From positions 1-58,904 of the forward strand of contig JACPEZ010000047.1 of assembly GCA_016183225.1 (NCBI GenBank): 58,904 bases of DNA, written 5' to 3'. Shown piece after piece: positions 5,142-55,055 of the stretch. The notes under the pieces are model-generated. The model had not been told where the DNA came from. It did not search any database and saw only the letters and a program-made list of their open reading frames with translations. Position 1 is the first letter of the stretch; each line of letters opens with the position of its first letter. Origin of the DNA: Candidatus Daviesbacteria bacterium. Lineage in GTDB: Bacteria; Patescibacteriota; Microgenomatia; Daviesbacterales; UBA10151. Made by a program: the position numbers and the translations under genes.

Positions 5142-5984
5142 TCAAGCCAGACCTAAAATCGCTACCCCTGCAAGAAGAACTGCTGCTCCTATCAAAACCT
5201 GAATCATTTTTTTTCTCTGGGCAACTTCTTTAAAATAAAACAATCCCCAAAAAACAGCCACCAGTATGGCTGATTGGCTGATCGGGCCCATCTTGGATAA
5301 ACCAATAATAGAAAGCGATAGCAGCGACAATAAATTACCAATGTTCCAAATTAACCCGCTCAACAAACTTTCTTTAACCGCCTCTTTCTTAAATTTTACT
5401 TTCATAACTTGCGAAATCAGCAATCCTGTGATAAATATTCCAAAACAAACAGGAAAGAAAAAATCACGGGTAGCCACATTGCCAACTTTGATGGGCACAA
5501 GCTGACTACCAAACATTAAACCAGCTATAATCCCTGCCAGCAGTCCTTTTTTAATATTTTGGCTGTGAGTATTGCCAGTAGCGCTGATTAAAATTACTCC
5601 TAGAACTATCAGCCCTATCCCGAAAAACCCCATTATTATTCCTGTAGGTAATTCACCAAACACCAATGCTCCCCATAAAAATGAAGATAGGATGACAAGT
5701 GATGACAAAAGCGGGGCCGCTCTCGAGAGCCCCAGATTTAATACAGCAACTAAGGATATGACATTTGCGCTTGCCCATAAAACTCCGCTTAATAGGCCAT
5801 ACATGTTTAATGTCAAAGAATAACCTAAAATCAAAGAGATCAAGAGCCCTGAAAATCCTATTCCCACTGCCATTAAGGCCTGAAACGAAAGCAGGTTTTT
5901 TGATTGGGATATTTTAAAGGGGACCAGGTATGATCCCCAAGCTAAAGCCGCACCCAATGCTGCTAAAAATCCTAAATTTTCCAT
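5142..5984 (-). CDS. DMT-superfamily (EamA/GRP-like) transporter
   Basis: About 10 predicted TM segments with a two-halves architecture. Start moved to ATG MENLGFLAAL to avoid overlapping the upstream gene. Confidence 0.55.
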   Translation of the reverse strand: MENLGFLAALGAALAWGSYLVPFKISQSKNLLSFQALMAVGIGFSGLLISLILGYSLTLNMYGLLSGVLWASANVISLVAVLNLGLSRAAPLLSSLVILSSFLWGALVFGELPTGIIMGFFGIGLIVLGVILISATGNTHSQNIKKGLLAGIIAGLMFGSQLVPIKVGNVATRDFFFPVCFGIFITGLLISQVMKVKFKKEAVKESLLSGLIWNIGNLLSLLSLSIIGLSKMGPISQSAILVAVFWGLFYFKEVAQRKKMIQVLIGAAVLLAGVAILGLA

Positions 5985-5985
5985 T

Positions 5986-8838: not shown

Positions 8839-8889
8839 GCGTAAATCGTAGCACTAAAATCCGGTAATGCAAGAGAGAGAAAGCGTATC

Positions 8890-9297
8890 TTAATAGATCC
8901 TGTCCAGGGCCTCATTGGCCAGCTTATCGGCCTTGAAATTTCGGGAGCGGGGAATGTGCCTGTAAAAAACCTCTCCTGTTTCCATTTCCAGTATTTTAAT
9001 TTGCTCAAAAAGAATTTTGAGATTTGGATTTTTGATTTTAAACCTTCCGGAAAGCTGTTCTACTACGAGTCTTGAGTCTGCAAAAAACTCAATCTCAAGC
9101 CTTTGGGGAAACTTTTTTTTTAGATACTTAAATACTTCCAAAACTGCTGTATATTCGGCCACATTATTAGTAGCCACTCCGATGTATCTGCCTTCTTCAT
9201 AAATCAGGTTTCCCTTTTCATCGGAAACAGTAAAACCGTAGCTTGCAGGACCGGGATTGCCGCGGGAAGCCCCATCTGTATAAATTATTAGTTTCAT
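8890..9297 (-). CDS. rnhA: Ribonuclease HI
   Basis: IYTDGASRGNPGPASYGF, NNVAEY, and a C-terminal ADKLAN with RNase H-like acidic residues. Confidence 0.85.
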   Translation of the reverse strand: MKLIIYTDGASRGNPGPASYGFTVSDEKGNLIYEEGRYIGVATNNVAEYTAVLEVFKYLKKKFPQRLEIEFFADSRLVVEQLSGRFKIKNPNLKILFEQIKILEMETGEVFYRHIPRSRNFKADKLANEALDRIY

Positions 9298-10496
9298 CTC
9301 TTTAAGAGTATGCCCACCTGCATTATTAAAATCAAGTATTCGGAAATTACCGTAATCCAGGAAGCAGCGATATAGCCATATTGAGGAATAAATACCAGGT
9401 TAGCCGCAATGTTTACTGTTAGCCCTAAAGCATAAACGATTAACAATTTTTTGTACATTTTTTTAGCTACCATCACCCACATCAGCAGCGCGGACAAAAA
9501 GTAGGCAGGGAAGCCAAAAGACAAAATGCGGAGCGACTCCACAGATCCGGCAAAACCCGATCCGGTAATTAATTTAATAATTACAGGGGATAAGTAATAA
9601 GTGATAAGTAATATGAATAGAGACAAAAATAACAGGCCCAGAGGGGCCAGTTTGGAAGTTTTGCGCGCTTTAAGCATCATCGGGTAATAAGAGTTCATCA
9701 AAAAAGCAGGCAGCACCAAAACGGCCTGAAAAACCGAATAAGCCACATTGTAAATTCCAACTTCAGCCAAGCCTTTAAAAAAAGAGAGAATAAAAGCATC
9801 GGCCCTAAAATAGATGATATTTAAAAATAGGGTTGCTGCCAGAGGAAGACTGCCTTGAAATAAAGCAACCAGATATTTTTTGCTAAAAATGGGGGAGAGT
9901 TGTTTAATAATTCTTCTGACCAGGAGTAACAGCAGGCCGGTATAAATAAGCCACGATAAAACATAACCAACAGTCAATAAATACACAGGCGCGCGAACGC
10001 TTGACAAATAAAAAATCAATAACACCCCTGCCGGAGCAGACAGAAAAACAGGCCAGCTAGAATATTCGTATTTCAGATTAACTTGAATTAACGCTTGAGC
10101 GGTGAAAAACAGGCTGTTTAAAAAAATAGATAATGCGCCAACCAAAACAGCCAGTTTAAAATCAACCAGCCCGGGTGTAAAAATTAGCGGCAAGGCAGCT
10201 GCCAGAATTGTTAAAAATATTCCCCATAAAATCCTCACCCCCAGCAGTTTTCCCCATTCATTCCGTAACCTGTAACCTGTAACCTGTAACCTTCTTAAAA
10301 TATATCCGTTAAAACCAAAATCCGCTAAAACATAAAAAAAGGCCAGGTAAGTAAGGGCCAGAGTAAAATTTCCCACTCCGCCTTCACCATAAACGCGGGA
10401 AACTATTCCCAAAATAATAAACCCGCTGGAAGTGGTAACCGCTTTAAAAACCAGCTGCCATCCGGTCTGCTGGGTAATTTTAATAATTTTTTGCAC
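9294..10496 (-). CDS. Polysaccharide flippase-like membrane protein (Wzx/MOP-like)
   Basis: About 12 TM segments, envelope-gene neighbourhood, 4-nt overlap with rnhA. Confidence 0.55.
   Translation of the reverse strand: MQKIIKITQQTGWQLVFKAVTTSSGFIILGIVSRVYGEGGVGNFTLALTYLAFFYVLADFGFNGYILRRLQVTGYRLRNEWGKLLGVRILWGIFLTILAAALPLIFTPGLVDFKLAVLVGALSIFLNSLFFTAQALIQVNLKYEYSSWPVFLSAPAGVLLIFYLSSVRAPVYLLTVGYVLSWLIYTGLLLLLVRRIIKQLSPIFSKKYLVALFQGSLPLAATLFLNIIYFRADAFILSFFKGLAEVGIYNVAYSVFQAVLVLPAFLMNSYYPMMLKARKTSKLAPLGLLFLSLFILLITYYLSPVIIKLITGSGFAGSVESLRILSFGFPAYFLSALLMWVMVAKKMYKKLLIVYALGLTVNIAANLVFIPQYGYIAASWITVISEYLILIMQVGILLKR
10265..10292. repeat. Heptamer tandem repeat (gtaacct x4) inside the flippase gene
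   Basis: Four perfect 7-nt units read directly. Encodes RLQVTGYRLR on the minus strand. Confidence 0.9.
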
Positions 10497-10500
10497 CAGA

Positions 10501-11628
10501 TTATTCTAACTTACGAGTAGTAAAACTTAAACCCCAGACTAAAAAGAGTAATCTGTAACCCTGGGGTAGAGTTAAGAAATAGTGATCAAATAAACCCAGG
10601 AATAAAATAGTGAGTAGTGCATAGCGCCTGGCAAAACCAATTGGACTAATTAGTCCAATTAGACCAATTAGTCCAATTAGACCGGTTTCCGAAAGAGCCA
10701 AAAGAAATATATTATGAACAGGTTGCAAAAAACGGCTGGGACCGGCCACTAAATCTTCTTGAGCAGAAATAAAGTTATTCAAACCCACTCCCAAAACAGG
10801 ATTTTTTAAAAACAGCTGCCAGCTGCTTACTGATAGCTCCTCCCGCCGGAGTAAAGTTAACTCATCATAACTAAAAAGGGAGGAAAATCTGGTAAATAAA
10901 ATAGGAGAAAGCAAACCCGCTATTATTAAAAAAATAACTAATTTTTTTCGCAGTAATAAAAACGCTCCTGCCAAAATAGCTACTCTGGACATGGTCAGAA
11001 AAATTGTCAAACCGGAAACTATAAAAACCAGTCTTTGCCTTAGAATCAAAGATAAAACTAATAAGTATCCTGCCAAAACATTGGGATGGGGGAAAGTTCC
11101 ATATGGCCGCAAAAATTCCAGGCCGTAAAAATTAAACTTGGCAATGCCGGGAGTAGTCATGGTAAAAGTTCTCTCCCCCAAAATCCAAAGTCCTATTGTC
11201 CCCCCTTTGATAAATTGGGCTATGGCAAGGACAGACTCTCCCATAATTCCCAAAGAAAGAGGCAAAAAAATATTTTTGGGTTTTGCAGATGCTATATAAA
11301 CACCGAATAAACCAGCTGTGATATATTGTTCCAACCTGACTAAACCGGCACCAATATTATTGGCTCCAATCAGCGACAAAACTTGGGTCAGTAAAAAAAA
11401 CAACAATAAATTAAAAGCCGGTTTATTAATTTTAGGTTTTTGCCAAAGCCAGACCAAAATCAATAAAACAACCAGTAAATCCCAAAAATACAAGGTGGGG
11501 GCAAGATAATCTATTTTTAAAGAATAAATATGGGAAAAATCAGGCCAAAAATGACGACCTAATTGCGTGGGTAAAAAGAGCAGGGTTAAAAAGAGAAAAA
11601 CTCTCTCAATCCTTGCCAGTTTTGACAT
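10501..11628 (-). CDS. O-antigen ligase-like (Wzy_C-type) membrane protein
   Basis: Polytopic membrane protein with a TMSRVAILAG-type loop motif. Contains a 9-nt tandem repeat (10637-10681) encoding GLIGLIGLIGLISPIG. Confidence 0.55.
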   Translation of the reverse strand: MSKLARIERVFLFLTLLFLPTQLGRHFWPDFSHIYSLKIDYLAPTLYFWDLLVVLLILVWLWQKPKINKPAFNLLLFFLLTQVLSLIGANNIGAGLVRLEQYITAGLFGVYIASAKPKNIFLPLSLGIMGESVLAIAQFIKGGTIGLWILGERTFTMTTPGIAKFNFYGLEFLRPYGTFPHPNVLAGYLLVLSLILRQRLVFIVSGLTIFLTMSRVAILAGAFLLLRKKLVIFLIIAGLLSPILFTRFSSLFSYDELTLLRREELSVSSWQLFLKNPVLGVGLNNFISAQEDLVAGPSRFLQPVHNIFLLALSETGLIGLIGLIGLISPIGFARRYALLTILFLGLFDHYFLTLPQGYRLLFLVWGLSFTTRKLE

Positions 11629-12130
11629 TTGATCCCTCGACTTCGCCCGCCTCTGGCGTGGCTTCGCTCGGGACAGGCTTTTGAGTTTTGAGTTTAATTA
11701 TTATGTGCCGGTCTCTGCCTTCTCCAACACTCTCGCTTTCCACCCCTTTAGTTTCCTGAACCACCATATGAACTATTCTTCTCTGCCAGGGGCTCATTGG
11801 TTCCAGTTCCAGCTCTTTCCCGCTGTCCAAAACCTGTTTTACCCAGGCTTTGGCGCTAGCGCTTAACTCTTCTTCTTTCTGCTTTCTCCATCCTCCCACA
11901 TCCAGAATGACTCTTTTATAGTCGCCTTCTGCCATCTTTCTGGAAACCATTTGATTGACAATAAGTTGCAACCCGTCCAAAGACTGGCCTCCCGAGCCGA
12001 TTAAACGGCCGGCATCTTTGGTTTCAATTAAAACATGGAGGCCGTTTTCATCCTCCTCAATTTCATAAGAACCCTCCAGGAGTAACAGCCCCAAAATGTT
12101 ATCTAAAACTTCGCTTAACTTTTCTTCCAT
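11606..12130 (-). CDS. jag: Jag-like KH/R3H RNA-binding protein
   Basis: KH GxxG (LIGSGGQSLD) and an R3H-like segment (PWQRRIVHMVV). Conserved position downstream of yidC. Confidence 0.75.
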   Translation of the reverse strand: MEEKLSEVLDNILGLLLLEGSYEIEEDENGLHVLIETKDAGRLIGSGGQSLDGLQLIVNQMVSRKMAEGDYKRVILDVGGWRKQKEEELSASAKAWVKQVLDSGKELELEPMSPWQRRIVHMVVQETKGVESESVGEGRDRHIIIKLKTQKPVPSEATPEAGEVEGSNVKTGKD

Positions 12131-12945
12131 AACCCCTCCAAACCTCCCCAGCCTGCCAGTTTATATTGCTGGATAATTCCCAGTACTGTATAGGTATTCC
12201 AGTAAATTGCCAGACCAACCGGAAACTGAAAGGCAAAATAGCCAATCATGATGGGCATCAGATAAACCATTTGCGACTGCACCTGACCCATGCTTTCTGC
12301 CATGCCTTCTTTTTCTTTTATTTCTTTGGGGCTTTCTCCGGCGTGGTGCTTGATTAACTTGGGCAAGGTCATTTTAGACTGGATAAAAGTCAGCGCGGCA
12401 GTAGCAACGGGGATTAAAAGCAGGGCCGGCCCGTATTTACCAAATTCCGAGGGCTTAACCCCTAAATTCAAACCGAAGAAATTAGGATCGGGCAAACCGG
12501 TTAAATGCATGGAGGGGAAATACAACAGCGAATTAACCCAGTCCAAATTGGCCTGGCCCGGCTGGCCGGGTAAAATATTAATAATGGCCTGATACAGCCC
12601 GATAAATACGGGAATCTGCAGAAGTGCCGGCAGACAACCCCCGGCCGGATTAACCCCGTGCTCTTTATAAAGAGCCATTTGGGCGCCGGCCAGCGCTTTT
12701 TTGTCGTCCTTGTGTTTTCTTTTCAGCTCATCCAGGTGGGGTTTTAAATCGCCCATCTTTTTGGTCATTTTAATCTGGGATGTCATCAGCGGCCAGACCA
12801 GCAGTCTGATGGCCACGGTTAAAATAATCAGGGCAAAGCCCAAGGCTCCCGGAATATGCAATGATTGCAAAAACTGGAAGGTGAGAAGTAAAAGATTAAT
12901 AATCGGCTGTATAAAGACGGCAATAAAAATATCCCCTATATTCAT
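12115..12945 (-). CDS. yidC: Membrane protein insertase YidC (short form)
   Basis: LLVWPL, QIKMTKKMGDLKP, YKEHGVNPAGGCLPALLQIPVF and GLAIYW motifs. The ATG at 12945 makes an ATGA overlap with the yidD stop. Confidence 0.85.
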   Translation of the reverse strand: MNIGDIFIAVFIQPIINLLLLTFQFLQSLHIPGALGFALIILTVAIRLLVWPLMTSQIKMTKKMGDLKPHLDELKRKHKDDKKALAGAQMALYKEHGVNPAGGCLPALLQIPVFIGLYQAIINILPGQPGQANLDWVNSLLYFPSMHLTGLPDPNFFGLNLGVKPSEFGKYGPALLLIPVATAALTFIQSKMTLPKLIKHHAGESPKEIKEKEGMAESMGQVQSQMVYLMPIMIGYFAFQFPVGLAIYWNTYTVLGIIQQYKLAGWGGLEGLWKKS

Positions 12946-34736: not shown

Positions 34737-35812
34737 ACTTGGGCCGAAGTTAATCTTTCTCTGCCTGCCTGCAAAGTTTCCGGATTGCCTGCAGAAGTTA
34801 ACATCTGAAATGCCCCCAAAAGCATCATCAAAAATGCCAAACCCCCTCCAATGCCCAGGCCAAATTTTAATACATCCTGCACCAAATCCGCAGGATTGGT
34901 ATGTATACACCCAATGGCTGTTTTTATGGCCGGTTTTGCCGGGTCACATTCTAAACCTTTTCCAGAGGTACAAATTCCCAATGCGGCATCCTGCGTAGTG
35001 CAACCCTTTTTAAGGGTACCTGTATCGAGTACTCTGCCAGGTTTATCCGGTGTGCCTACAGTAAACTCCAAGGGGCAAAGGGGTTGTCCAAAACCTCCAA
35101 AGGGTCCAATATTGAGCCGGCGAATATCAATTTTGTGACGCCCCACTGTTTTCCAGGAAGTAGGTATTGCTATGGGACTAAAGTCTGGAGTATCCAAGTA
35201 AAGCAAAAGCTTTGGATCAAAGGAATCGTATGGTGTTGTTATGACACCGTCAAAAAACAATCTAAATTGCGACGTGATGGTGCTGGTTAAATTTTTCCCG
35301 GAAATCGTTAGGTTGGTGGCAGATGTAATTCCTTCTGTAGGTTTAAGCTCCAACTTACAAAGATTGTCGTTATCAACCACATCATAATAAGCCAGGCATT
35401 GGGGTACAGCCTGATTGTTGATAAGTGCGTGTAACACAATCTGTTTATTTTTTCCTTCGGAAAACTGACAGGGAGTAGTGCCGGGAATAAAGATTGACCG
35501 GTCAAGATCGTAAAAGATTTCATCTTCATTGAGCTTGGAGGCTGTGAATGTATAATCATTGACTCGCTGACCGGGGGCGAATGGCAGATCCCGGCAGTTA
35601 AATTCCATCCTGTAGATAGTACTGGCATTGCCTTGGCCCACATTGATAATAAACCTGGCTTTGCGCGTTTCATCTGTTAGAGGTTTACCGTCTGCCGGCT
35701 CTATCTTTACTGGACAGCTTGCTTGGGGGGCGGCTGATATTGAAGAAACACTGATAAGAAAAAATACAAAGAAGAATAATAACAGAAGCAGGATTTTAAT
35801 TATTTTCCCCAT
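34733..35812 (-). CDS. Secreted large-ectodomain protein ending in a half T4SS-pilin module (adhesin-pilin fusion)
   Basis: Signal peptide MGKIIKILLLLLFFFVFFLISVSSISA|AP, a ~290-aa Cys-containing ectodomain, then GGGLAFLMMLLGAFQMLTSAGNPETLQAGRERLTSA. That is pilin TM1 plus loop, but the ORF stops before a second TM. Confidence 0.6.
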   Translation of the reverse strand: MGKIIKILLLLLFFFVFFLISVSSISAAPQASCPVKIEPADGKPLTDETRKARFIINVGQGNASTIYRMEFNCRDLPFAPGQRVNDYTFTASKLNEDEIFYDLDRSIFIPGTTPCQFSEGKNKQIVLHALINNQAVPQCLAYYDVVDNDNLCKLELKPTEGITSATNLTISGKNLTSTITSQFRLFFDGVITTPYDSFDPKLLLYLDTPDFSPIAIPTSWKTVGRHKIDIRRLNIGPFGGFGQPLCPLEFTVGTPDKPGRVLDTGTLKKGCTTQDAALGICTSGKGLECDPAKPAIKTAIGCIHTNPADLVQDVLKFGLGIGGGLAFLMMLLGAFQMLTSAGNPETLQAGRERLTSAQV

Positions 35813-35828
35813 ATTTTTACCTTAGCAC
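35803..35828. repeat. Direct repeat copy A (ttttccccatatttttaccttagcac), the native leader and start of the adhesin gene
   Basis: The reverse complement contains gtgctaaggtaaaaatATGGGGAAAA. The ATG is the start of the 34733-35812 CDS. Confidence 0.9.
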
Positions 35829-36752: not shown

Positions 36753-36763
36753 GATAATAAGAT

Positions 36764-36808
36764 TTTTCCCCATATTTTTACCTTAGCACAAATTTAATTT
36801 AGGGTCTA
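36764..36808. repeat. Direct repeat copy B (45 bp)
   Basis: ttttccccatatttttaccttagcacaaatttaatttagggtcta is identical to copy C. Contains the stop codon (cta) of ATPase 1. Confidence 0.9.
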
Positions 36809-37945
36809 GTTGTTTAAGAATTGTTCAAAATTATTCGGATAGATAATCTTATAAGTACTGTTTTTATAAACAGAGGTAAATTCTTTCCCCGCTGAAGTCA
36901 GTGTGGTTTTTTTGGGTGTGAACTTAAACTCAAAGGCTGTAAGCCTGCCTTCTTTTTCCTCGATTAAATCAATCTCCTTTTGGTCATAAGTGCGCCAAAA
37001 GTATAGATTAGCAACCTTTCTGCTGTTTTCAAGGGTTTTTAATCTTTCTATTACGCACAGGTTTTCAAACATTACTCCTTTATCTGTGCGCAAATTTAAT
37101 GGGTTAAAATTACGTATTAGAGCATTACGGAGACCCAAATCTACAAAGTAATATTTGGAGGTTTTAGAAATTTCTTTGCGTAAATTACGGCTGAACCCCC
37201 GAATATTAATAATTACAAACATTTTTCCCAAAAGGTCTAAATACTTCTCAACTATAATTTTCGAAAGCGATAAATTTTGCGCCAGTTCCTGAATGGATAC
37301 CTCGCTGCCGATTTGTAAAGCAAGAAGAGATAGCAAATCAATAATTTTTTTAGGTTTACGTATTGTTTCAAAGCTTAAGACATCTTTATACAAGTAATTA
37401 TTGATCAGTTCGTTAAGGTAAAGCTCTTTTTCCGCTTCAGAGGAAAGAGTGATAACCTTTGGGTATAGGCCAAACCGCAAAAATTCCCCGATTTTGGCAG
37501 GTACTGTTTCAAGTATATTTTTTGGCACTTCCGGTACTCCGAGAGGGTAGAGTGTAAAAGTGACAGACCTGCCTGTTAAAGGCTCGTTGATTTTATTTGC
37601 CAAATCAAAGGATGAAGAGCCTGAAGCTATAATGTGTATTTTTAGCGAGTCGAAAAGCAATTTTAGAACCAGACCAATGTTTTGAATTCTTTGAGCTTCG
37701 TCTATGACTAGCAGTTTATTTGCGCCAACGATCTTTTTTAACCGGTCCAAATCAGCTATACCAAACAATTCTTGCGTACGAAGATCGTCACCGGTAAAAA
37801 TTAAACACGTTGATTTAATTCCGTTTAATAATTGATTAATTAGGGTTGTTTTACCGGATTGTCTGGGTCCGTAAATTATAATTATTTTAGGCTCACCCAT
37901 GAGCTGTTTTTGAATTCTGGTAAGTATACTTCTATCAATTAGCAT
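36806..37945 (-). CDS. AAA-type ATPase with C-terminal DUF4143 (PD-(D/E)xK-like) domain, copy 1
   Basis: Walker A GPRQSGKTTL, Walker B LLVIDEAQ, C-terminal FWRTYDQKEIDLIEEK...FEFKF. Start set to ATG MLIDRS, preceded by TTGACA-17-TATACT. Confidence 0.8.
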   Translation of the reverse strand: MLIDRSILTRIQKQLMGEPKIIIIYGPRQSGKTTLINQLLNGIKSTCLIFTGDDLRTQELFGIADLDRLKKIVGANKLLVIDEAQRIQNIGLVLKLLFDSLKIHIIASGSSSFDLANKINEPLTGRSVTFTLYPLGVPEVPKNILETVPAKIGEFLRFGLYPKVITLSSEAEKELYLNELINNYLYKDVLSFETIRKPKKIIDLLSLLALQIGSEVSIQELAQNLSLSKIIVEKYLDLLGKMFVIINIRGFSRNLRKEISKTSKYYFVDLGLRNALIRNFNPLNLRTDKGVMFENLCVIERLKTLENSRKVANLYFWRTYDQKEIDLIEEKEGRLTAFEFKFTPKKTTLTSAGKEFTSVYKNSTYKIIYPNNFEQFLNN

Positions 37946-38052
37946 AAATTGAGTATAGTATAGTTTACTTAATTTGTCAAGAGGGAGAATATGGTAGCCC
38001 CGAACATTATTTTGGGAAAGTTTTAACAATATCCGTTTCTAATAATACCATA

Positions 38053-38097
38053 TTTTCCCCATATTTTTACCTTAGCACAAATTTAATTTAGGGTCTA
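38053..38097. repeat. Direct repeat copy C (45 bp)
   Basis: Identical to copy B. Lies just 3' of ATPase 2 (stop at 38102-38104). Confidence 0.9.
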
Positions 38098-38101
38098 CTT
38101 C

Positions 38102-39355
38102 TTAAAATTTTTTATCAATCAATTCAAAGAATGGAAGAATATAGATTTTGGTTTTATCTATCAAGGTCTTGAAATTTCTGCCAAGATGTACGACATATCC
38201 TTTTCCAGGTTTATACTTTGCCGCAAAATTTCTGAAAGAACGCGTAAGTTCAATTTTTTTCATCTTTGAATATTTTATCTCAATTGGCGTAATCTCCAGT
38301 CCTTTTTCCAAGACAAAGTCAACTTCTGCCTGATCGCGCGTCCTCCAAAAGTGGATTTGGGTGAGTGCTGACTCAAGCTGCATCCGCAGCATATTAAAAA
38401 CAAAGTTCTCAAATAGATGCCCGCTTAATGGAGACGGGATTCGGGGCAATCCGAAAAGCCCCAGGAGCCAATTACGAAGTCCGATGTCGTAAAAATAATA
38501 TATTGGCGCTTTGGTAATTTCTTTTCTGGTGTTTCTGTAATATGGTGTGACCTTTTTAAGGATAAAAGTTTGCTCCAAATACCACAAATAATGCTTGACA
38601 GTTTTTTCGTCAAGATCAACGGTTGACGAAAGCTCTGTTAAATTAATAAGACTGCCAATCTGTGAGGCAATGATTTTCAAAAGATTACCTAAAGCCTCTG
38701 TTTTTTCCAGGCGCAGCAGGTCTCTTAAATCTCTATCTATATAACTTTGGTAAATCTCCTGCATTTCGCTTTGTTTCAAAGAGACGGAGTCTGATAAGAC
38801 TACCCGCGGGTATCCTCCAAAAACCATGTATTCAGAAAGTAAATGTTCGGTTTTGGCTTTTTCCACAATAAAAAAATCATTTAACTTGTCTTCATAGTGA
38901 TAATTGGTTTTATAATTGACAAATTCCTCAAAACTTATCGGTTCAATAATAAAGAGTTGTTTCCTTCCTGCCATCGACTCCGGTATTTTTGCTTTAAGCT
39001 CAAGGCTTCCTGAACCTGAAATAATAAATTTATGCGGTAGGCGCATATCAAAGATGCCTTTTAAGAAAAGCCCGGCATTTTCTTTGCGCTGAATTTCATC
39101 AATAAAAACAAATGCTTTTTCCCTGCCTGCCACAAGATTGATATACGAAAGCAAGGCGGCTTGCGAGGCGACCTTCAATGCATCCTCCTCATTATCCAGG
39201 TTTAACCAGATTGTTTTTTTACTCTCGTTTGCCAACATCTCTTGCAAAATCTGCATTAAATAGGTTTTTCCCACCTGTCTGGGACCAGTAATAATAGTCA
39301 TCTGGTCTGAGAAAAGATGGCGCACGAGCAGGGCAAGTATTTTTCTTTTAATCAT
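38102..39355 (-). CDS. AAA-type ATPase with C-terminal DUF4143 (PD-(D/E)xK-like) domain, copy 2
   Basis: Walker A GPRQVGKTYL, Walker B FVFIDEIQ, C-terminal FWRTRDQAEVDFVLEK...IEIKYS. Confidence 0.8.
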   Translation of the reverse strand: MIKRKILALLVRHLFSDQMTIITGPRQVGKTYLMQILQEMLANESKKTIWLNLDNEEDALKVASQAALLSYINLVAGREKAFVFIDEIQRKENAGLFLKGIFDMRLPHKFIISGSGSLELKAKIPESMAGRKQLFIIEPISFEEFVNYKTNYHYEDKLNDFFIVEKAKTEHLLSEYMVFGGYPRVVLSDSVSLKQSEMQEIYQSYIDRDLRDLLRLEKTEALGNLLKIIASQIGSLINLTELSSTVDLDEKTVKHYLWYLEQTFILKKVTPYYRNTRKEITKAPIYYFYDIGLRNWLLGLFGLPRIPSPLSGHLFENFVFNMLRMQLESALTQIHFWRTRDQAEVDFVLEKGLEITPIEIKYSKMKKIELTRSFRNFAAKYKPGKGYVVHLGRNFKTLIDKTKIYILPFFELIDKKF

Positions 39356-48664: not shown

Positions 48665-49851
48665 TGTTTACCTACCTCGGTATGAATCTCTCCAAAGTAG
48701 CGTCTAAATCTAGGGTATTCTCTAAATGAGATGTCCGCCAAACTAACTATAATCTGAGTTATTACTAAACAAATTACACCCCAAAGTAATAATTTAGTAA
48801 ACATATGATGCCTATTATGATACAAAGACATTAGGCCATAGCTAATAATAAAAACTAAAGCTGGCATAATAAGTATTAGCCTGTGGAGATCAACCAGAGG
48901 TTGGGCGAGTATAGAAGGTAGGGTTAGAGATAAACCGGCTAATATCATCATCCTGCTTGACTTGTGATTTTTAAAACTCCTGTATAAACCATAAAGGAAT
49001 GGAGCTATAAATCCTAAATAGAGGGGAGGACTAAAGGAAAAGTTTAGAAGTTTCTCTTGAGATGTAAAATAAGTTGAGGGACTAAGGTGTTTTAAACCTT
49101 TTAGTAGTAGGTATTCTGATAAATAGAGATATTTATTTTCAGTCAACTTAGATAAAGCACCAAACCCTGCTTGTTGGCTCTCACCTTTAAAGCTATTCAC
49201 ACCATTTAATAATCCAGGTTCAGAGAAAACTTTAATCTGTTGTTTAGTTAAGTTATAAATTCCTTCTGGATTATAGAAAGATCCCAAAACCACTGGCAGA
49301 TACATTAGTAAGACTACTAAAAATAGTTTGCGCTTTTGTTGTTTGCTCAAGTAACCAGTCACCACAATAAATAAGAAGAGAATCCAAATTACTGGAGCTG
49401 CAAGAAGAGAGAAATAATATAGCCCCCCAATGAACAGAACTAACCACCATATTGATCCTTGATTATCCTTCCACTTTAGAAAACTTAAAAACAAGCTTAG
49501 CGAAAATAATAAAGCTATGATTGAATTAGCTTGAGCTGCTACTAAATAAGCAGGCCACAAGGATATACCAAATACCAGTGGAGGAAGCAAAAACCATTCA
49601 GCTGGGAAAAACCGCCGAGCTATTAACCAAATTAAGAAAGTACTTCCTCCTCCGCAAAGATAATAAGCCCAAACTGGTAGAAAAATTGGTTTACCAATTA
49701 AGTCAACTAAAAAGATACTCTGATGATCCAGTCTAATATTATGTAAGGAATAAGCGATGAACCAACTAAGCAGCAATTGAAAAAGGATAGTTATCAATAC
49801 CGAGAAAATAATCCGAGTTAATTTTGTATGACTTACATTGTTATTTACCAT
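48661..49851 (-). CDS. Polytopic membrane protein, possible GT-C-type glycosyltransferase
   Basis: About 10 TM segments and a 4-nt overlap with the downstream GT39-like gene. No catalytic motif recognised. Confidence 0.4.
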   Translation of the reverse strand: MVNNNVSHTKLTRIIFSVLITILFQLLLSWFIAYSLHNIRLDHQSIFLVDLIGKPIFLPVWAYYLCGGGSTFLIWLIARRFFPAEWFLLPPLVFGISLWPAYLVAAQANSIIALLFSLSLFLSFLKWKDNQGSIWWLVLFIGGLYYFSLLAAPVIWILFLFIVVTGYLSKQQKRKLFLVVLLMYLPVVLGSFYNPEGIYNLTKQQIKVFSEPGLLNGVNSFKGESQQAGFGALSKLTENKYLYLSEYLLLKGLKHLSPSTYFTSQEKLLNFSFSPPLYLGFIAPFLYGLYRSFKNHKSSRMMILAGLSLTLPSILAQPLVDLHRLILIMPALVFIISYGLMSLYHNRHHMFTKLLLWGVICLVITQIIVSLADISFREYPRFRRYFGEIHTEVGKQ

Positions 49852-49987
49852 TTCATAAGGTATCTTTCATTTGAAAAGACTACTTAAATAGTAACAATCA
49901 GTGGGGGTAGAAATCAACAAGAAAATAAGGCTAAAAGGTAACATACAGTGGGTTCTGTAGGATAGATGAACTTGGTAGCTTGTCCGT

Positions 49988-50200
49988 GTGGTTACTAAAC
50001 GAGATAAAAAGCTCGGTAAACAACTGCACCGACTGCGAAAGCAGCGAAAGCTCACACAAGAGCAAATCGCTGAAAAAGTAAGGGTGAGTGCAAAATATAT
50101 CCAATACCTTGAGTCTGCCAAGAGGGTACCCAGCCTGAAACTGCTCTATAGAGTTGCTGATACTCTCCAAGTTAAGGTAAAAGATTTATTTACTTTCTAG
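49988..50200 (+). CDS. XRE-family helix-turn-helix regulator (70 aa)
   Basis: LGKQLHRLRKQRKLTQEQIAEKVRVSAKYIQYLESAKRVPSLKLL is a canonical Cro/C1-type HTH. GTG start. Confidence 0.7.
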   Translation: MVTKRDKKLGKQLHRLRKQRKLTQEQIAEKVRVSAKYIQYLESAKRVPSLKLLYRVADTLQVKVKDLFTF

Positions 50201-50332
50201 GGCAAATATTGGCCAGAACATAAGACAGATACTTTTTCTGGCCTAAGAAAGCCCGCTGAGGTTTTTCTTGCTTTAAGCCTCTCTCTGCTGTAATATCTGG
50301 TGCAACTGCCCTCTAAATTACTATTAACGAGA

Positions 50333-52456
50333 ATGGATATTCAACTTTTTATGTCTATTTTTAAGGGGCGTCATGACGTTTATGCTAAACGGTGGGAAAA
50401 AGATGGTAAAAACGGCTACAGTCCTGCATATAGGGTGGATTGGAGTAAGTTTGCAGCTTTTAAAGCCAGGGGCGGTAAGTTTTCAGATTATCCCCACAAA
50501 ACCCCATTACCTCTAACATTAGAAATTATTCAAAGTCATTTAGAAGGTAAGGAGATAGTAGGGATTTATCCTTTATTATCAGACAATACCTCCTACTTTA
50601 TAGCAGCTGACTTTGATGGTGAGAATTGGCCGGAGGAAATAAGGGCATTTTCTAAAGTCTGTGCCAGATACAGTATTCCAACCTATTTAGAAAGATCCAG
50701 ATCTGGTAATGGTGGTCATGTCTGGATTTTCTTTGAAGACAAATACCCTGCATATAAATCAAGAAAAATTATTTTAGAAATAATCAGAGAAGCACTTGAG
50801 CTTTCAGTTTTTGACCGAGAAGTTAGTTTTGATAGATTATTTCCAAACCAAGATTATCACACAAATAAGGGATTTGGGAATCTAATTGCCTTACCACTAC
50901 AGGGAGACTCATTAAAAAATAGTAATTCTGGTTTTCTTGATCCTGAAACGCTGGAAATTTTACCTGATCAGTGGAACTTTATTAAAAATATTGAACCTGT
51001 TTCTCTGGATATACTTGATAAACTTTATCTCGAGTTAGTAGAGGAACTGGCAAAAATAAGCAACACTCAGAAAGCAACTAAAGGCACATTAAATGTCATT
51101 ATCCAAAACCAGATTTACCTAAATAAAAGTCAGCTAACTCTTGTAATGGTAAAATTCCTGAGAGAAAATTTAAACTTTTCAAATCAGGAGTACTTTGTTA
51201 AACAAAAAATTGGCATTAGTACCTATAAAACCGAAAAGTATTTCAGGCTGATTGAGGAAACTAATGATTCTGTAACTATTCCCAGAGGCTTTTTAAATCA
51301 ACTTATTGAATTTTGTGAAGAGAATAAGATCCCCTTTGAAATTATTGATAAGCGGGAAAAATTAGCTGATGTTAAGTTTAAATCAAAGATTTCACTTAGA
51401 GATTATCAGAATATAGCTGTTACTGAGGCTATGAATAAGGATTACGGAGTAATTGTTGCTCCATCAGGATCGGGAAAGACTGTTATTGGACTGGAATTGA
51501 TAGCCAGAAGATTACAACCAGCACTGATTCTGGTTCACCGAAAGCAGCTATTAGATCAGTGGGTGGAGAGAATAGAGTCTTTTTTAGGAATCCCTAAAAA
51601 GGATATTGGTCAAATTTCAGGAAATAAAAAGAAACCCGGAGATCAAATTACTGTGGCTATGGTTCAAAGTCTACTAAAAATGAATAACCTTGATGATATA
51701 AGTAAGAGTTTTGGCACTATTCTCCTCGATGAATGCCATCATGTACCGGCCAGAACTTTTAGAGAACTAATTTCAAACCTGAACTCTTATTACCTTTATG
51801 GTTTAACAGCAGCTCCCCAAAGAAAATATAACGATGAGAAGCTAATTTATTACTATCTCGGTGATGAAATTGTAACCATAGATCCAGATCAACAAAAAGG
51901 TTCTTTAACTGATAAAATTACAGTCCATATTCGTAGCACTGTTTTATCTGTACCATTTGATTATAAAACTGATGTATTTGAAGTCATTTCAAAAATACTT
52001 ATTTTTGATAGTGCCAGAAATTTATTGATCTGCCAGGATGTTTTACAGGAAGTTCTAAAGGGAAGGAAAATTCTTATCCTGACAGAGCGTAAAGAGCACG
52101 TTGAAGTATTAAATCTTTATTTAAAATCCCACGCTGAAATTATTACTTTAACTGGTGAGGATTCACAAAGAAAGCGTAGGCTTAAAATTGAACAAATTAA
52201 ATCAGGTAATTTTCAGATTCTTATAACAACTGGCCAACTGTTTGGTGAAGGCATGGATTTTTCTGCCTTCAACTGTTTATTTTTAACCTATCCATTTTCG
52301 TTTGAGGGAAAACTGATTCAGTATATTGGAAGAATCCAGAGGTCTAAGAGCAAACAGATAATTTATGATTACAGGGATCAGAATGTGGCTTTTCTGGAAC
52401 GTTTGTTCCAAAAAAGGTTAAAATATTATCAGAAGCGTGGCTGGGTAGAAAAATAG
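50333..52456 (+). CDS. Archaeo-eukaryotic primase (PrimPol)-like domain fused to an SF2 (ResIII/DEAD-like) helicase
   Basis: N-terminus: FKGRHDVYAKRWE, IAADFDGENW, SRSGNGGHVWIFF, FGNLIALPLQG (AEP motifs I-III-like). C-terminus: Walker A APSGSGKT, LLDECHH, and motif VI-like GRIQR. Confidence 0.75.
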   Translation: MDIQLFMSIFKGRHDVYAKRWEKDGKNGYSPAYRVDWSKFAAFKARGGKFSDYPHKTPLPLTLEIIQSHLEGKEIVGIYPLLSDNTSYFIAADFDGENWPEEIRAFSKVCARYSIPTYLERSRSGNGGHVWIFFEDKYPAYKSRKIILEIIREALELSVFDREVSFDRLFPNQDYHTNKGFGNLIALPLQGDSLKNSNSGFLDPETLEILPDQWNFIKNIEPVSLDILDKLYLELVEELAKISNTQKATKGTLNVIIQNQIYLNKSQLTLVMVKFLRENLNFSNQEYFVKQKIGISTYKTEKYFRLIEETNDSVTIPRGFLNQLIEFCEENKIPFEIIDKREKLADVKFKSKISLRDYQNIAVTEAMNKDYGVIVAPSGSGKTVIGLELIARRLQPALILVHRKQLLDQWVERIESFLGIPKKDIGQISGNKKKPGDQITVAMVQSLLKMNNLDDISKSFGTILLDECHHVPARTFRELISNLNSYYLYGLTAAPQRKYNDEKLIYYYLGDEIVTIDPDQQKGSLTDKITVHIRSTVLSVPFDYKTDVFEVISKILIFDSARNLLICQDVLQEVLKGRKILILTERKEHVEVLNLYLKSHAEIITLTGEDSQRKRRLKIEQIKSGNFQILITTGQLFGEGMDFSAFNCLFLTYPFSFEGKLIQYIGRIQRSKSKQIIYDYRDQNVAFLERLFQKRLKYYQKRGWVEK

Positions 52457-52457
52457 T

Positions 52458-52901
52458 ATGATTAAGAAACTGAAACCTATACCAGATGTAATAGTCTATA
52501 AAGATAATGCCGGCAATGGCATTTTCTCAGATGAAACTTATATTACAACTGAATTAGGTGGCGAGGCACATAGATTACGCAATTACGTTGTTATAAGTGC
52601 TCTAAATAATAAACCCTTTACAAATAAGCAAAGGGGGATTATTAAAAAACAATTTAACTTAGTCAGTAAAAAGCATGACTCAAAAATAGAAGAGATAGAA
52701 TTTTCTAAAAATTATGCACTTATTAAAATTCTTATCTCAGTTGAGGTAGCACCCCAGGAGTTAATAGATGCTGGGATGAATACCTGTGATGATATTGAAA
52801 AGTTCTTGCGTTTCCATTTTTATTGTACAAATGTTAAAAAACCATCCAAGAAAGTAATAAAGGATTACTTAAATGAAATCACCGAGAAAAAAGCAAATTA
52901 G
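52458..52901 (+). CDS. Hypothetical protein (147 aa), possibly a degenerate IS200/TnpA (Y1 HUH)-like fold
   Basis: Starts 1 nt after the helicase stop. Pattern-level resemblance to TnpA_IS200 (IEEIEF..NYALIKILISV..; FLRFHFYCTNV...VIKDYL), but the HUH histidines are absent. Confidence 0.4.
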   Translation: MIKKLKPIPDVIVYKDNAGNGIFSDETYITTELGGEAHRLRNYVVISALNNKPFTNKQRGIIKKQFNLVSKKHDSKIEEIEFSKNYALIKILISVEVAPQELIDAGMNTCDDIEKFLRFHFYCTNVKKPSKKVIKDYLNEITEKKAN

Positions 52902-52979
52902 TATAAAAGAATACTATCCTTTCAGCTTTTTTATTCTTTTGTTATCTTGTTATTGCTTCTTTTTGATATTATGATTTAA

Positions 52980-53231
52980 ATGGTGTTAAAATACTCCCCT
53001 ATGGACGAAAATAAGCACAAAAAGGTTCTGTTTAATAAAATTTACGCCAACATCCCGCTGGGTCTAAGAGATGAAATTGTGGTTGTACTGGAAAACAACG
53101 AACCATTATCCTGGAATGCTGCCAAAATAGAGATTGATAATGATACAGATAAGGTAGATGAAATCTTAGACAAACTTAATCGGCTAGGTTTGTTAAAAGA
53201 GCATTCGGAAGACCAACATGGACACGAATAA
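52980..53231 (+). CDS. Hypothetical small acidic protein (83 aa)
   Basis: ATG ORF on the same strand, overlapping the next ORF by 14 nt. Confidence 0.35.
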   Translation: MVLKYSPMDENKHKKVLFNKIYANIPLGLRDEIVVVLENNEPLSWNAAKIEIDNDTDKVDEILDKLNRLGLLKEHSEDQHGHE

Positions 53232-53451
53232 GGAAGACAAAAAGCTTCAGGAATACATTAAAGAGCTGGTGATAGCCAGAATTAACGCTCTCTCTAAAGA
53301 TTTGGAGATTTCAGTCGGTGGTGAAAATATTACCAGAGAGCAGATTGTAGAAAGCGTTAAAGAGGGTAATGAGCTTGGGCAAGAGATTATTGAAATGCAA
53401 CTTAAATTCCTAAGAGATATTGCCGAAGGTAAAATCTATCAGAGTGAATAA
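53218..53451 (+). CDS. Hypothetical small helical protein (77 aa)
   Basis: ATG ORF on the same strand with overlapping neighbours. Confidence 0.35.
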   Translation: MDTNKEDKKLQEYIKELVIARINALSKDLEISVGGENITREQIVESVKEGNELGQEIIEMQLKFLRDIAEGKIYQSE

Positions 53452-54091
53452 TACCATCCTTATCACCAGACCCAACCATGATTTTCCTACAACTTACCTT
53501 TATTATTGGAGTGAGTTGGTAATTGATGAAGCAAAAAGTAAAGGTATCACCGTATTAGATTTAGATGGCAAAAAGGCCAGTAAGCAGAAGTTTAGTAGTT
53601 ATATTAGTAGAAATAACCCCCGCCTAATTTTTTTAAATGGTCACGGAGCAAAAGATCGTGTAGCTGGCTATAATGATGAGATATTGCTTGATGAAGCTAA
53701 CTGTGAAGCGTTACTTCGAGAAAAAATAATTTATGCCAGGAGCTGTGAGGCAGGAGCAAAGTTAGGCCCATTTAGCATAGAAAAAGGTGCAACTGTTTTT
53801 ATTGGTTACAATAAAGATTTCTGGTTAATACGCTCAAAAGAACGAGGCACTAAACCACTAACTGATCCAATCGCTAAGTTCTTTCTAGAACCTTCAAATT
53901 TAGTACCTATATCCTTAATCAAGGGAAATAGTGCCCAGGAGGCATATCAAAAATCCCAAGATGATATGAGGAGAAATTTTAGTTACATGATTTCCAGTAA
54001 AGCTTCCCAGGAGGAAAGAGATGCTGCCTTTTTTCTTTTTTCCAATTATACTTGCCAAATTATATTGGGAGATAAGCAAGCTAAAATTTAA
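53420..54091 (+). CDS. Caspase-fold (CHAT/gingipain-like) putative cysteine protease
   Basis: His-Cys dyad in canonical contexts: PRLIFLNGHGAKD (hydrophobic strand-GHG) and EKIIYARSCEAGA (hydrophobic strand-x-C-x-x-G), followed by GATVFIGY. The start is uncertain: TTG at 53420 or GTG at 53444. Confidence 0.45.
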   Translation: MPKVKSIRVNNTILITRPNHDFPTTYLYYWSELVIDEAKSKGITVLDLDGKKASKQKFSSYISRNNPRLIFLNGHGAKDRVAGYNDEILLDEANCEALLREKIIYARSCEAGAKLGPFSIEKGATVFIGYNKDFWLIRSKERGTKPLTDPIAKFFLEPSNLVPISLIKGNSAQEAYQKSQDDMRRNFSYMISSKASQEERDAAFFLFSNYTCQIILGDKQAKI

Positions 54092-54140
54092 ACGGATAAA
54101 CTTAAAATTTCTTGAGTTTGTTGCAGGGTGAGTTCGGGAA

Positions 54141-55055
54141 ATGATAAAATTTCTATCCAGTTGGTTAATCGAAAGTTATCCCAGGCTGCCCGCACAACAA
54201 ATCTTTCTATCATCATGCTATCATGGTTTAGTGGATTACCAAAAGATTGAGGACTGGCAAAAATTAAAGGAATTAAAAAACCTGCTGGATTTAGCTAATC
54301 CTCCTAAACAGCTTTATTTTCAAGGTAACTGGAACAGGGAAATTTTTAAAAATTGCGTGGCTGTGGTAGGTTCCCGCAAAATGACCGATTACGGAGAGCG
54401 GGTGGTGGAAAAAATTATTCCCCGGCTGATTAACCAAAATCAAACCGTTGTGTCCGGTTTTATGTACGGAGTTGATCAGTATGCCCATCGGGTGTGTGTT
54501 GACTCCGGAGGCAAAACCATTGCCGTGTTGGGCTGGGGCATTGATAAAAAATTAACCAGTCTTGATGCCAAACTGGCCAAAGATATTGTTGATAGCGGAG
54601 GGTTACTGCTGTCTGAATGGGAGAGCCAGGAGGGCACTTTGTGGACTTTTCCCCTGCGAAATAGAATAGTGGCTGCTTTATGCGATGAAGTCATTGTGGT
54701 GGAGGCGGCGGAAAACAGCGGTTCTTTGATCACGGCCAGAGCGGCTGCCAGACTTAAAAAAACAGTCTGGGCTGTGCCCGGCCCCATCACCAGCAAGACC
54801 TCTCGGGGTACCAACCGCTTAATTGCCGAAGCTAAAGCCAAAATGTGGCTGGGTGAAGATAGCATGCAGTTATCTCTTTCTCCAAACATTGACCCTCTTT
54901 TGCAGATTCTGGAAAATGAGGCTTTAACAGCCGATGAGCTGGCCAGAAAACTTAAAACCGCAGTTTCCGAAATTGGAGCTAAACTTTCTTTGCTACTGAT
55001 ATCTGGTCAAATCATGGAAAAAGGAGGAAAATATTACCTGACCGATGCTAGTTAA
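54141..55055 (+). CDS. dprA: DNA-processing protein DprA (Smf)
   Basis: VAVVGSRKMTDYG, VSGFMYGVDQYAH, GGKTIAVLGWGID, and a C-terminal winged-helix-like tail. Confidence 0.85.
   Translation: MIKFLSSWLIESYPRLPAQQIFLSSCYHGLVDYQKIEDWQKLKELKNLLDLANPPKQLYFQGNWNREIFKNCVAVVGSRKMTDYGERVVEKIIPRLINQNQTVVSGFMYGVDQYAHRVCVDSGGKTIAVLGWGIDKKLTSLDAKLAKDIVDSGGLLLSEWESQEGTLWTFPLRNRIVAALCDEVIVVEAAENSGSLITARAAARLKKTVWAVPGPITSKTSRGTNRLIAEAKAKMWLGEDSMQLSLSPNIDPLLQILENEALTADELARKLKTAVSEIGAKLSLLLISGQIMEKGGKYYLTDAS

Follow-up and report, generated by a model that had tools for sequence, protein, structure and literature searches.

Tight gene packing in a Daviesbacteria contig probably places a mobile AEP-TOTE helicase unit beside a resident caspase-like peptidase trio by chance

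Introduction

Do genes that lie close together on one strand form one functional system, or can unrelated modules come to look like one? This question is raised by a block of about 4.1 kb in a stretch of 58,904 nucleotides from a Candidatus Daviesbacteria bacterium (assembly GCA_016183225.1, contig JACPEZ010000047.1, positions 1 to 58,904 of the forward strand), a member of the candidate phyla radiation (CPR); we call this whole stretch the window. The block consists of six plus-strand open reading frames (ORFs) at 49988-54091. They encode an XRE regulator, a fusion of an archaeo-eukaryotic primase (AEP) domain with a superfamily 2 (SF2) helicase, a 147-aa protein, and two small proteins followed by a caspase-like peptidase, the last three of which we call the trio. 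A sequence-only reading of the window had taken the six genes for one candidate conflict/defence or mobile module under an XRE switch. Our analysis suggests instead that the block is probably a chance juxtaposition of a helicase with its partner, a resident trio and an orphan XRE gene, and not one system.

Results

Gene neighbourhoods of the block

The evidence comes from the neighbourhoods of homologous genes. We compared 85 helicase loci from at least eight phyla, Patescibacteria included, and 80 metagenomic peptidase loci, 64 of which had enough upstream sequence for the genes before the peptidase to be assessed. Relatives of the 147-, 83-, 77- and 223-aa proteins were found in none of the 85 helicase loci (tblastn; the 147-aa family was also searched by profile), and neither the helicase nor the 147-aa gene occurred in any of the 80 peptidase loci. 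A co-occurrence check had been suggested with the sequence-only reading; run on these two sets, it never found the helicase and the downstream genes together, and the idea of one six-gene system fails on these counts. Close relatives also keep the parts separate. The trio is present without the helicase in L003 and L091, and the helicase without the trio in L004 and L089 (L and P numbers denote the compared loci). DNA homology between the window and L003/L091 begins at about 52935, in the intergenic region between the 147-aa and 76-aa genes. We read the trio as a resident cassette and the helicase with the 147-aa gene as an acquired two-gene unit.

The opposite possibility is a single defence system of six genes under XRE control, with the primase-helicase as the sensor of invading DNA and the caspase-like protein as effector. 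The layout would fit such a system, because the genes share a strand with short gaps or overlaps (52456/52458; 53231/53218; 53451/53420) and no plus-strand terminator was predicted within the block. In addition, CHAT/caspase effectors are known in defence, the peptidase fold matches SAVED-CHAT and Craspase, and the XRE protein resembles capH-type regulators. However, the genes do not co-occur in either set of loci, relatives carry the modules separately, a conserved upstream region of its own precedes the trio, and the XRE gene is not conserved with the helicase. We consider one six-gene system very improbable and largely refuted by the gene-neighbourhood data. The ORFs, their coordinates and junctions, and the position of the block between glycosyltransferase genes and dprA were all reproduced as the sequence-only reading had described them; it appears that tight same-strand packing in a small CPR genome mimicked a six-gene defence system, to which the neighbourhood statistics say no. 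The coordinates of the features are collected in Table 1.

Table 1. Features of the block, with the evidence for each
Feature	Position	Strand	Evidence or remark
Orphan XRE/HTH_3 regulator, 70 aa, GTG start	49988..50200	+	Pfam HTH_3 PF01381, E=9e-14
AEP-TOTE primase-polymerase (predicted) + XPB/Rad25-like SF2 helicase	50333..52456	+	Pfam, PADLOC and PDB sequence matches
Helicase partner, predicted TnpA (Y1 transposase) fold, no HUH	52458..52901	+	AlphaFold + Foldseek
Conserved trio upstream region	52935..53000	+	Near-identical in L003 and L091; unrelated further upstream
Trio gene 1, 76 aa	53001..53231	+	Consensus F-x-K-I-Y-A-N-L-P ... T-W-N
Trio gene 2, 77 aa	53218..53451	+	Overlaps gene 1 by 14 nt
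Trio gene 3, 215-aa cysteine peptidase with predicted caspase/CHAT fold	53444..54091	+	AlphaFold + Foldseek; invariant His/Cys

The primase-helicase fusion

The fusion protein has 707 aa if translation starts at ATG 50333, and an alternative GTG at 50300 would give 718 aa. Within the gene, the AEP domain occupies about 50339-51019 and the helicase core about 51386-52345. The sequence-only reading had seen an AEP-like N-terminus joined to an SF2 helicase and had tentatively attached a 'TOTE' label to it, and both were right: Pfam identified AEP-TOTE (PF22548; E=1.6e-81, 273.7 bits with a cut-off of 27), ResIII (1.4e-28) and Helicase_C (1.2e-10), and the motifs quoted in that reading are invariant. 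PADLOC matched the fusion to PrimPol (2.2e-69). Among PDB sequences, the helicase half matched archaeal XPB/Rad25 (E=1.4e-23) and the AEP half matched 7nqd/7nqf (E=6e-13), which we take to be the Marinitoga CRISPR-associated primase-polymerase. The NCBIfam XPB model matched at 3e-24, under its cut-off, so that the fusion should be described as XPB-like and not as an XPB equivalog.

We assessed motif conservation with 13 homologues that were 53-85% identical to the window fusion. In the AEP half, covering the DxD, sGxGxH and third acidic motifs, D95, H129 and D167/D174 were conserved and D93 was nearly invariant. In the helicase half, the Walker A motif GxGKT (G379, G381, K382, T383), DECHH at 466-470, T492/A493 of motif III and Q663/G666/R667/R670 of motif VI were all invariant. 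By these catalytic motifs the fusion can be placed in the AEP (PrimPol) superfamily, and primase/polymerase activity is predicted.

TOTE denotes TPR, OB, TBP and Effector, in the definition as cited in bioRxiv 10.1101/2025.09.15.676423 (Aravind, Iyer et al. 2022). Like TOTE systems, the window helicase carries, as the effector part, the AEP domain family that names PF22548. Unlike them, it lacks a neighbouring TPR-OB/CSD or TBP gene, both in the window and at the homologous loci that were examined. No Pfam match to a tetratricopeptide repeat (TPR) or cold-shock domain (CSD) was obtained in the six proteins or the flanks, and a phmmer search with a CspA sequence against six-frame translations of the window and part of the helicase loci gave nothing. 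The sole TPR protein observed beside a helicase homologue was a Ser/Thr kinase-TPR protein in L068. TBP likewise had no Pfam match in the six proteins or flanks, the distant loci not having been scanned exhaustively, and the fold predicted for the coupled partner of the helicase is that of TnpA instead of TBP. As far as its domains indicate, the window helicase is a member of the domain family and not a TOTE system.

The comparison with CRISPR-associated PrimPol gave a similar picture. The AEP domains are related, as seen in the PDB and PADLOC matches above and in a match to NF040561 (7e-26). However, the NF040561 score was 90.8 bits compared to a cut-off of 200, the AEP domain of the window protein is joined to an XPB-like SF2 helicase, and there was no cas gene among the six genes and four annotated flanking genes.

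Distribution and mobility of the helicase family

The family is large. At least 7999 homologues were found at E<=1e-10, and at least 579 loci were present among one-per-species reference genomes. Identity of about 50-55% is kept across Bacteroidota, Actinomycetota, Ignavibacteriota, Bacillota and Gammaproteobacteria. In the related Daviesbacteria contig L004, the fusion is 85% identical to that of the window and lies in a different context, between cupin and Fic genes, whereas core genes of the two contigs are less alike than the helicase (smpB 76%, comF 63%). DNA similarity to the window begins at 50263 in L004 and at 50333 in L089. Full-length relatives were also present in 98 plasmid records, and the plasmid copies examined lay amid insertion sequence (IS) elements and toxin-antitoxin genes and were not annotated as rep genes. 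None of 50,697 phage records held a full-length fusion, the phage matches being to the helicase half only, and 2 of 2.9 million viral contigs held the full fusion. The helicase gene is horizontally acquired, mobile and carried by islands or as cargo.

In E. coli, a relative was found in 1730 of 5426 complete genomes (about a third) and was near full-length in 684. These copies, which RefSeq names 'TOTE conflict system archaeo-eukaryotic primase domain-containing protein', follow int-alpA-yfjI-yfjJ in a variable cargo slot of an island. The E. coli protein WP_000233452 (786 aa) has the same PF22548 + ResIII + Helicase_C architecture as the window fusion, identical catalytic motifs and the same behaviour as mobile cargo; proteins of this type match over the full length with 34-35% identity. 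In some E. coli strains the helicase gene is dispensable or pseudogenised. In K-12, this slot behind int-alpA-yfjI-yfjJ is taken by the Hachiman-like abpAB. A role of the AEP-TOTE gene as defence cargo would agree with this, and the slot looks like an exchangeable hotspot of such cargo.

The CP4-57-type islands that we inspected (L095, which is E. coli K-12 2753000-2768000, L096 and L097) carry abpAB in K-12 and, in other strains, the AEP-TOTE helicase or else a truncated helicase remnant with a 1652-aa AAA protein after it. The E. coli plasmid and chromosome context, in which a helicase gene comes after alpA-yfjI-yfjJ, had pointed to K-12 YfjK as a member of the family. This was rejected, because an AEP-TOTE domain is absent from YfjK/AbpB and its BLASTP comparison with the window protein gave E=0.064. 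The island position is all that the family has in common with this Hachiman-type helicase.

Genes that recur beside the helicase include AbiEii, HipA, RhuM, YhcG/DUF1016, Fic, AlbA_2, AAA_14/DUF4143 and genes of the cyclic oligonucleotide-based antiphage signalling system (CBASS). A C-terminal extension of about 280 aa is fused to the helicase in 41 of the 85 loci (L032-L088; e.g. L066 10122-10961) and is carried by most of the Bacteroidota copies; it has many invariant residues and no Pfam or PDB match. At 16/85 loci the helicase adjoins a gene of about 440 aa with AlbA_2 (Schlafen-like) and HATPase_c_4 domains, which suggests a recurrent two-gene variant, and a Fic gene adjoins it at 7/85. 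Examples of the AlbA_2 gene are L007 9142-10461 and L008 9145-10473, and it often starts 2-4 nt past the helicase stop. In L008, from a 6-Mb genome, the helicase/AlbA_2 pair is directly preceded by genes for an XRE protein and for a small reverse transcriptase (RVT_1, 277 aa) (5867-9142). In another Daviesbacteria contig, L006, the helicase stands beside a CBASS-like CD-NTase with Cap15, an HNH gene and a LexA-like gene (9771-12654); here a CPR genome carries a small defence island.

A different view of the fusion is that it is a DNA damage-tolerance or repair enzyme, combining XPB-like unwinding with PrimPol repriming, which happens to travel on mobile DNA and has no role in conflict. Repriming at lesions is a known activity of PrimPol-type AEPs. 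Among helicases of solved structure, those nearest to the fusion, XPB/Rad25 and RadD, are repair enzymes, and the window copy adjoins the DNA-processing genes dprA and comM. However, the distribution of the family is sporadic and driven by transfer, and the adjacency to dprA is not conserved. The varied neighbours are mainly toxin-antitoxin, abortive-infection and CBASS genes and not repair genes, and the loss of the gene in some E. coli strains also argues against a repair function. We regard this explanation as quite unlikely. Of the proposed 'conflict/defence or mobile' module, then, the part that stands is the helicase gene, which behaves like a mobile conflict-island gene; the description does not extend to the whole block.

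The 147-aa helicase partner

The partner gene begins 1 nt past the helicase stop, and because stop and start are so close the two genes are probably translationally coupled. Its family is small (42 proteins). A member adjoins the helicase at six loci, namely the window, L089, L178, L179, L180 and L181, and the partner is specific to a CPR clade. The gene order differs in L178 (670-4371), where a 151-aa member is followed by a SWIM zinc-finger protein (319 aa) and the helicase.

The AlphaFold model of the partner had a pLDDT of 78 overall and of about 90 or more in the core. All of the top 30 Foldseek matches in the PDB were TnpA or RAYT proteins (IS200/IS605 and REP-associated transposases, respectively), with E values of about 5e-6 and TM 0.53-0.61. 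The sequence-only reading had counted the protein among three small orphans, and this needs correction for the 147-aa protein, while the other two remain without an assigned family. The model shares its fold with IS200/IS605 TnpA and RAYT (2VHG, 2F4F, 2XMA, 4ER8). In the family, H120 was invariant and Y137 was present in 24/25 members; Tyr137 lies on the C-terminal helix of the model (131-146) and may correspond to the catalytic tyrosine of TnpA. Unlike IS200/IS605 TnpA, the partner lacks the HUH motif (HxH in 0/25 members), has no sequence-level similarity to Y1 transposases, and is tied to a helicase gene instead of an insertion sequence. No TnpB or IS-end hairpin stood out near the partner, and an inverted-repeat scan of 49700-53100 gave weak pairs only. 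The protein had no match in Pfam, NCBIfam, PHROG or PADLOC. We read it as a putative transposase fold that lost its metal site and that may serve as a DNA-recognition accessory. BLASTP showed no kinship with the L006 139-aa protein or with the AlbA_2 and Fic partners, and hhalign showed none with the Bacteroidota C-terminal extension (E=0.63).

It is conceivable that the helicase and its partner are the replication module of an integrated element or a plasmid remnant, with the partner recognising the origin. AEP-based replicative primase-helicase fusions are known from plasmids and viruses. The family occurs on the 98 plasmids, a Replic_Relax gene lies about 4 kb upstream in L089, the E. coli gene follows yfjJ (Gp2/Rep-like), and the partner has a fold of the HUH superfamily. 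However, the helicase is of the monomeric, XPB-like SF2 type and not a hexameric SF3, SF4 or MCM helicase, and the partner lacks the HUH motif that nicking needs. In the window, no tRNA, integrase, relaxase or partition genes adjoin the module, and its flanking direct repeats are not above chance (the best, 14/16 at 49874/52859, is at chance level). The E. coli islands have replication-type genes of their own (yfjI and yfjJ), with the helicase in the cargo slot, the plasmid copies examined are not annotated as rep genes, and the fusion is nearly absent from phages. No match of the block to known plasmid or prophage replication modules was obtained; such a match is what the sequence-only reading had named as evidence against its view. 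We consider a replication module unlikely.

We suggest instead that the fusion is a 'conflict' enzyme that works largely on its own. The SF2 motor would act on DNA that is foreign or aberrant. On the single strand exposed in this way the AEP domain would prime or extend, so that the replication of the invader may be disturbed. The HUH-less TnpA-fold partner could be an adaptor that recognises single-strand or hairpin DNA. It may fill the slot that is taken in other lineages by the AlbA_2-ATPase, by Fic or by the fused extension of about 280 aa. In comparison, the E. coli copies stand alone after int-alpA-yfjI-yfjJ, and many Bacteroidota copies bear the fused extension or the AlbA_2-ATPase partner, unlike the coupled pair of the CPR clade.

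The XRE gene

The HTH_3 match in Table 1 agrees with the sequence-only reading that the first gene encodes an XRE regulator, and PADLOC matched it to HTH_VI and capH-like models. Its proposed role as a switch over the module was not borne out. An XRE-like ORF was found within 1.5 kb upstream of the helicase at only 7 of 71 loci, on which count we rejected it as a conserved helicase switch, and the XRE of L089 is no close homologue of that in the window. The gene lies outside the DNA shared with helicase-bearing relatives, given where the similarity to L004 and L089 begins, and its G+C content of 0.418 is unlike that of its neighbours. It is an orphan that may control the adjacent helicase locally and is not a conserved part of it.

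The caspase-like peptidase and its two small genes

The peptidase gene most likely starts at GTG 53444 (215 aa), whereas the longest ORF runs from TTG 53420 (223 aa); according to homologues and NCBI annotation, the GTG start leaves an 8-nt overlap with trio gene 2. The window gene is 100% identical to NCBI locus HYU96_04590. Its AlphaFold model was of high confidence (pLDDT 95.3, pTM 0.92), and Foldseek matched it in the PDB to SAVED-CHAT (8tl0, E=4.6e-7, TM 0.60) and gingipain R (1cvr, TM 0.67), with further matches to caspase-4, caspase-11, Craspase CHAT and C11 peptidases. Twelve of the 13 PDB matches at E<=0.001 were clan CD peptidases. In 19 sequences, His67 (NGHG, after strand 61-65) and Cys101 (RSC, after strand 95-99) were invariant. 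The sequence-only reading had noted a caspase-type His/Cys dyad in this protein and had named a non-caspase fold as evidence against its view; the dyad holds and the model shows a caspase/CHAT fold. Judged from the model, the 215-aa protein has a clan CD-like caspase-hemoglobinase fold, and proteolysis is predicted.

With SAVED-CHAT (8TL0), Craspase TPR-CHAT (8D9H, 7Y84), gingipain R and caspases-4/-11 the model shares the fold and the His/Cys pair at adjacent strand ends. Unlike the CHAT immune proteases, the window peptidase is just 215 aa long, lacks sensor and repeat domains and belongs to no Pfam peptidase family; two small genes regularly precede it, and it was seen in one CPR lineage only. 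The family comprises 2041 representative clusters in an exhaustive profile search; the best 150 of these were all unfused, with lengths of up to about 246 aa and in most cases near 215 aa. Identity between member groups is about 50%, and at least one metagenome-assembled genome (MAG) has two copies (P0094, P0111). The window peptidase had no Pfam match, and one of the 19 family members touches Peptidase_C25 at 7e-7. The profile found nothing among PDB sequences, no significant match was obtained in PADLOC models, NCBIfam or PHROGs, and the family was absent from viral contigs. A literature search on caspase-like proteins in Patescibacteria found nothing relevant.

Two small genes accompany the peptidase with great regularity. 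At the 64 metagenomic loci with enough upstream sequence, a gene 1-like ORF always lay directly upstream (64/64) and a gene 2-like ORF was also present in 62, and the median overlap with the peptidase gene across the peptidase loci was 4 nt. In the window, gene 1 most likely starts at ATG 53001 (76 aa) and not at 52980 (83 aa), judging by homologues and NCBI annotation. Its protein is 95% identical to that of L003 and 43% to that of the Shapirobacteria locus L001; the gene 2 protein is 99% and 54% identical, respectively. The gene 1 protein is possibly winged-helix-like, with weak and inconsistent Pfam matches only (e.g. MksE 0.002) and no PDB relative. Gene 2 gave no consistent Pfam or PDB match, a hit to sigma-E region 4 (E=0.15) being not significant. 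Neither small protein had detectable relatives outside the cassette in PDB profile searches and member-by-member Pfam scans.

The cassette was met only in Microgenomates-type CPR bacteria and matched no family library. Its neighbours vary. In L001 the trio follows ftsE, ftsX and an M23 peptidase gene with no helicase nearby, and cell-division genes (ftsEX, ftsA/Z, ftsW/murG) stand beside about 5 of 40 loci. The trio proteins of the window and L003 are about 89-99% identical, and the window and L091 have the trio at roughly syntenic positions. Upstream of gene 1, the region 52935..53000, judged by where its conservation begins, forms the boundary between the helicase module and the trio.

Could the trio then be a defence or toxin-antitoxin-like unit, in which a caspase-like toxin is curbed by two small antitoxin or sensor proteins? 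In structure, the peptidase comes closest to immune proteases (SAVED-CHAT, Craspase and inflammatory caspases), and the genes are small, overlapping and tightly linked with variable neighbours. The two copies in at least one MAG would also fit such a unit. However, the cassette is found in one CPR lineage only, and the identity between groups is compatible with vertical descent. It is also roughly syntenic between the window and L091, sometimes stands beside cell-division genes, and is absent from viral contigs and PADLOC models. We hold a defence unit to be rather unlikely, although it is the chief competitor of our own reading. Our best guess is that the trio is a regulated-proteolysis module. 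Such a module would act in the cytoplasm, with the two small proteins as substrates, inhibitors or regulators of the peptidase.

Discussion

Several observations weigh against the separation of the block into a helicase pair, a resident trio and an orphan XRE gene, or against the roles assigned to them. Read-through co-transcription is possible because no plus-strand terminator is predicted between the units. The site in the trio upstream region that resembles a promoter (TTGATA, 18 nt, TAAAAT at 52963-52992; score 10/12 with TG) is suggestive, but the total count of promoter-like sites is not above shuffled expectation. DNA identity with L091 is 88% in the trio compared to about 73% in the flanks, which could reflect constraint or transfer. 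The distant member L090 of the 147-aa family (31-33% identical) occurs without a helicase, and XRE-type genes recur near some helicase homologues (L008, L089, L093). Finally, the defence role of the helicase rests on genomic context and on the Pfam name, and a literature search for functional work on AEP-SF2 fusions found nothing relevant.

The trio and the AEP-TOTE helicase family are the parts worth pursuing. The helicase family is already catalogued and large; it occurs on plasmids, a relative was detected in roughly one in three complete E. coli genomes, and the E. coli copy in the island slot of K-12 abpAB offers a tractable system for its immune role and the contribution of the AEP domain. 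The CPR helicase with its TnpA-fold partner is a new, clade-specific pairing of a known mobile conflict-type gene. The trio belongs to a large undescribed family outside the searched libraries and is the most novel part of the block. It lends itself well to structural and biochemical studies of the regulation of minimal caspase-type proteases.

A wider proposal, which we offer tentatively and which falls short of being probable, has two parts. The trio would be an undescribed CPR proteolytic switch, made of the smallest known stand-alone CHAT/caspase protease and two small substrates, inhibitors or regulators, parallel to the Craspase-Csx30 and SAVED-CHAT cascades but without a nucleotide or RNA sensor; it could steer cell division or a stress/death decision. 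In addition, the HUH-less TnpA fold would have been recruited as the DNA-recognition subunit of a conflict enzyme.

Flanking sequences and composition

Upstream of the block, on the opposite strand, lie genes for a PMT_2-type glycosyltransferase and a DUF6057-like membrane protein; downstream are DprA and then ComM. The G+C content of the block is 0.350, compared to 0.418 for the whole window, 0.447 for dprA and 0.505 for comM, and it ranks 7th lowest among 220 windows. The sequence-only reading had called the block more AT-rich than dprA and comM, and so it is, but this is not specific to the block, for the upstream glycosyltransferase genes are equally AT-rich (0.345-0.363). A tetranucleotide-atypical stretch at about 45.5-54 kb likewise takes in these genes and the resident trio. 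Because of both, composition does not delimit an island, and we rejected it as an island marker. An Rfam scan found tmRNA and tRNA genes only.

At the junction of the trio and dprA (54084-54194), the window has a conserved non-coding element of about 100 nt with 82% column identity. There are two direct copies in L004 (10401-10511, 13192-13288), two in L005 and one in the window. A long hairpin is predicted from three sequences only, Rfam gave no match, and the element belongs to neither module. Because the dprA ATG at 54141 lies inside this element and the DprA domain begins at residue 47, the start of dprA is probably further downstream. Elsewhere in the window, a 65-nt repeat, 91% identical and with an exact core of 26-28 nt that occurs three times (35801-35828, 36754-36817, 38042-38106), brackets genes at 36-39 kb, where the window is most AT-rich (G+C 0.32-0.36).

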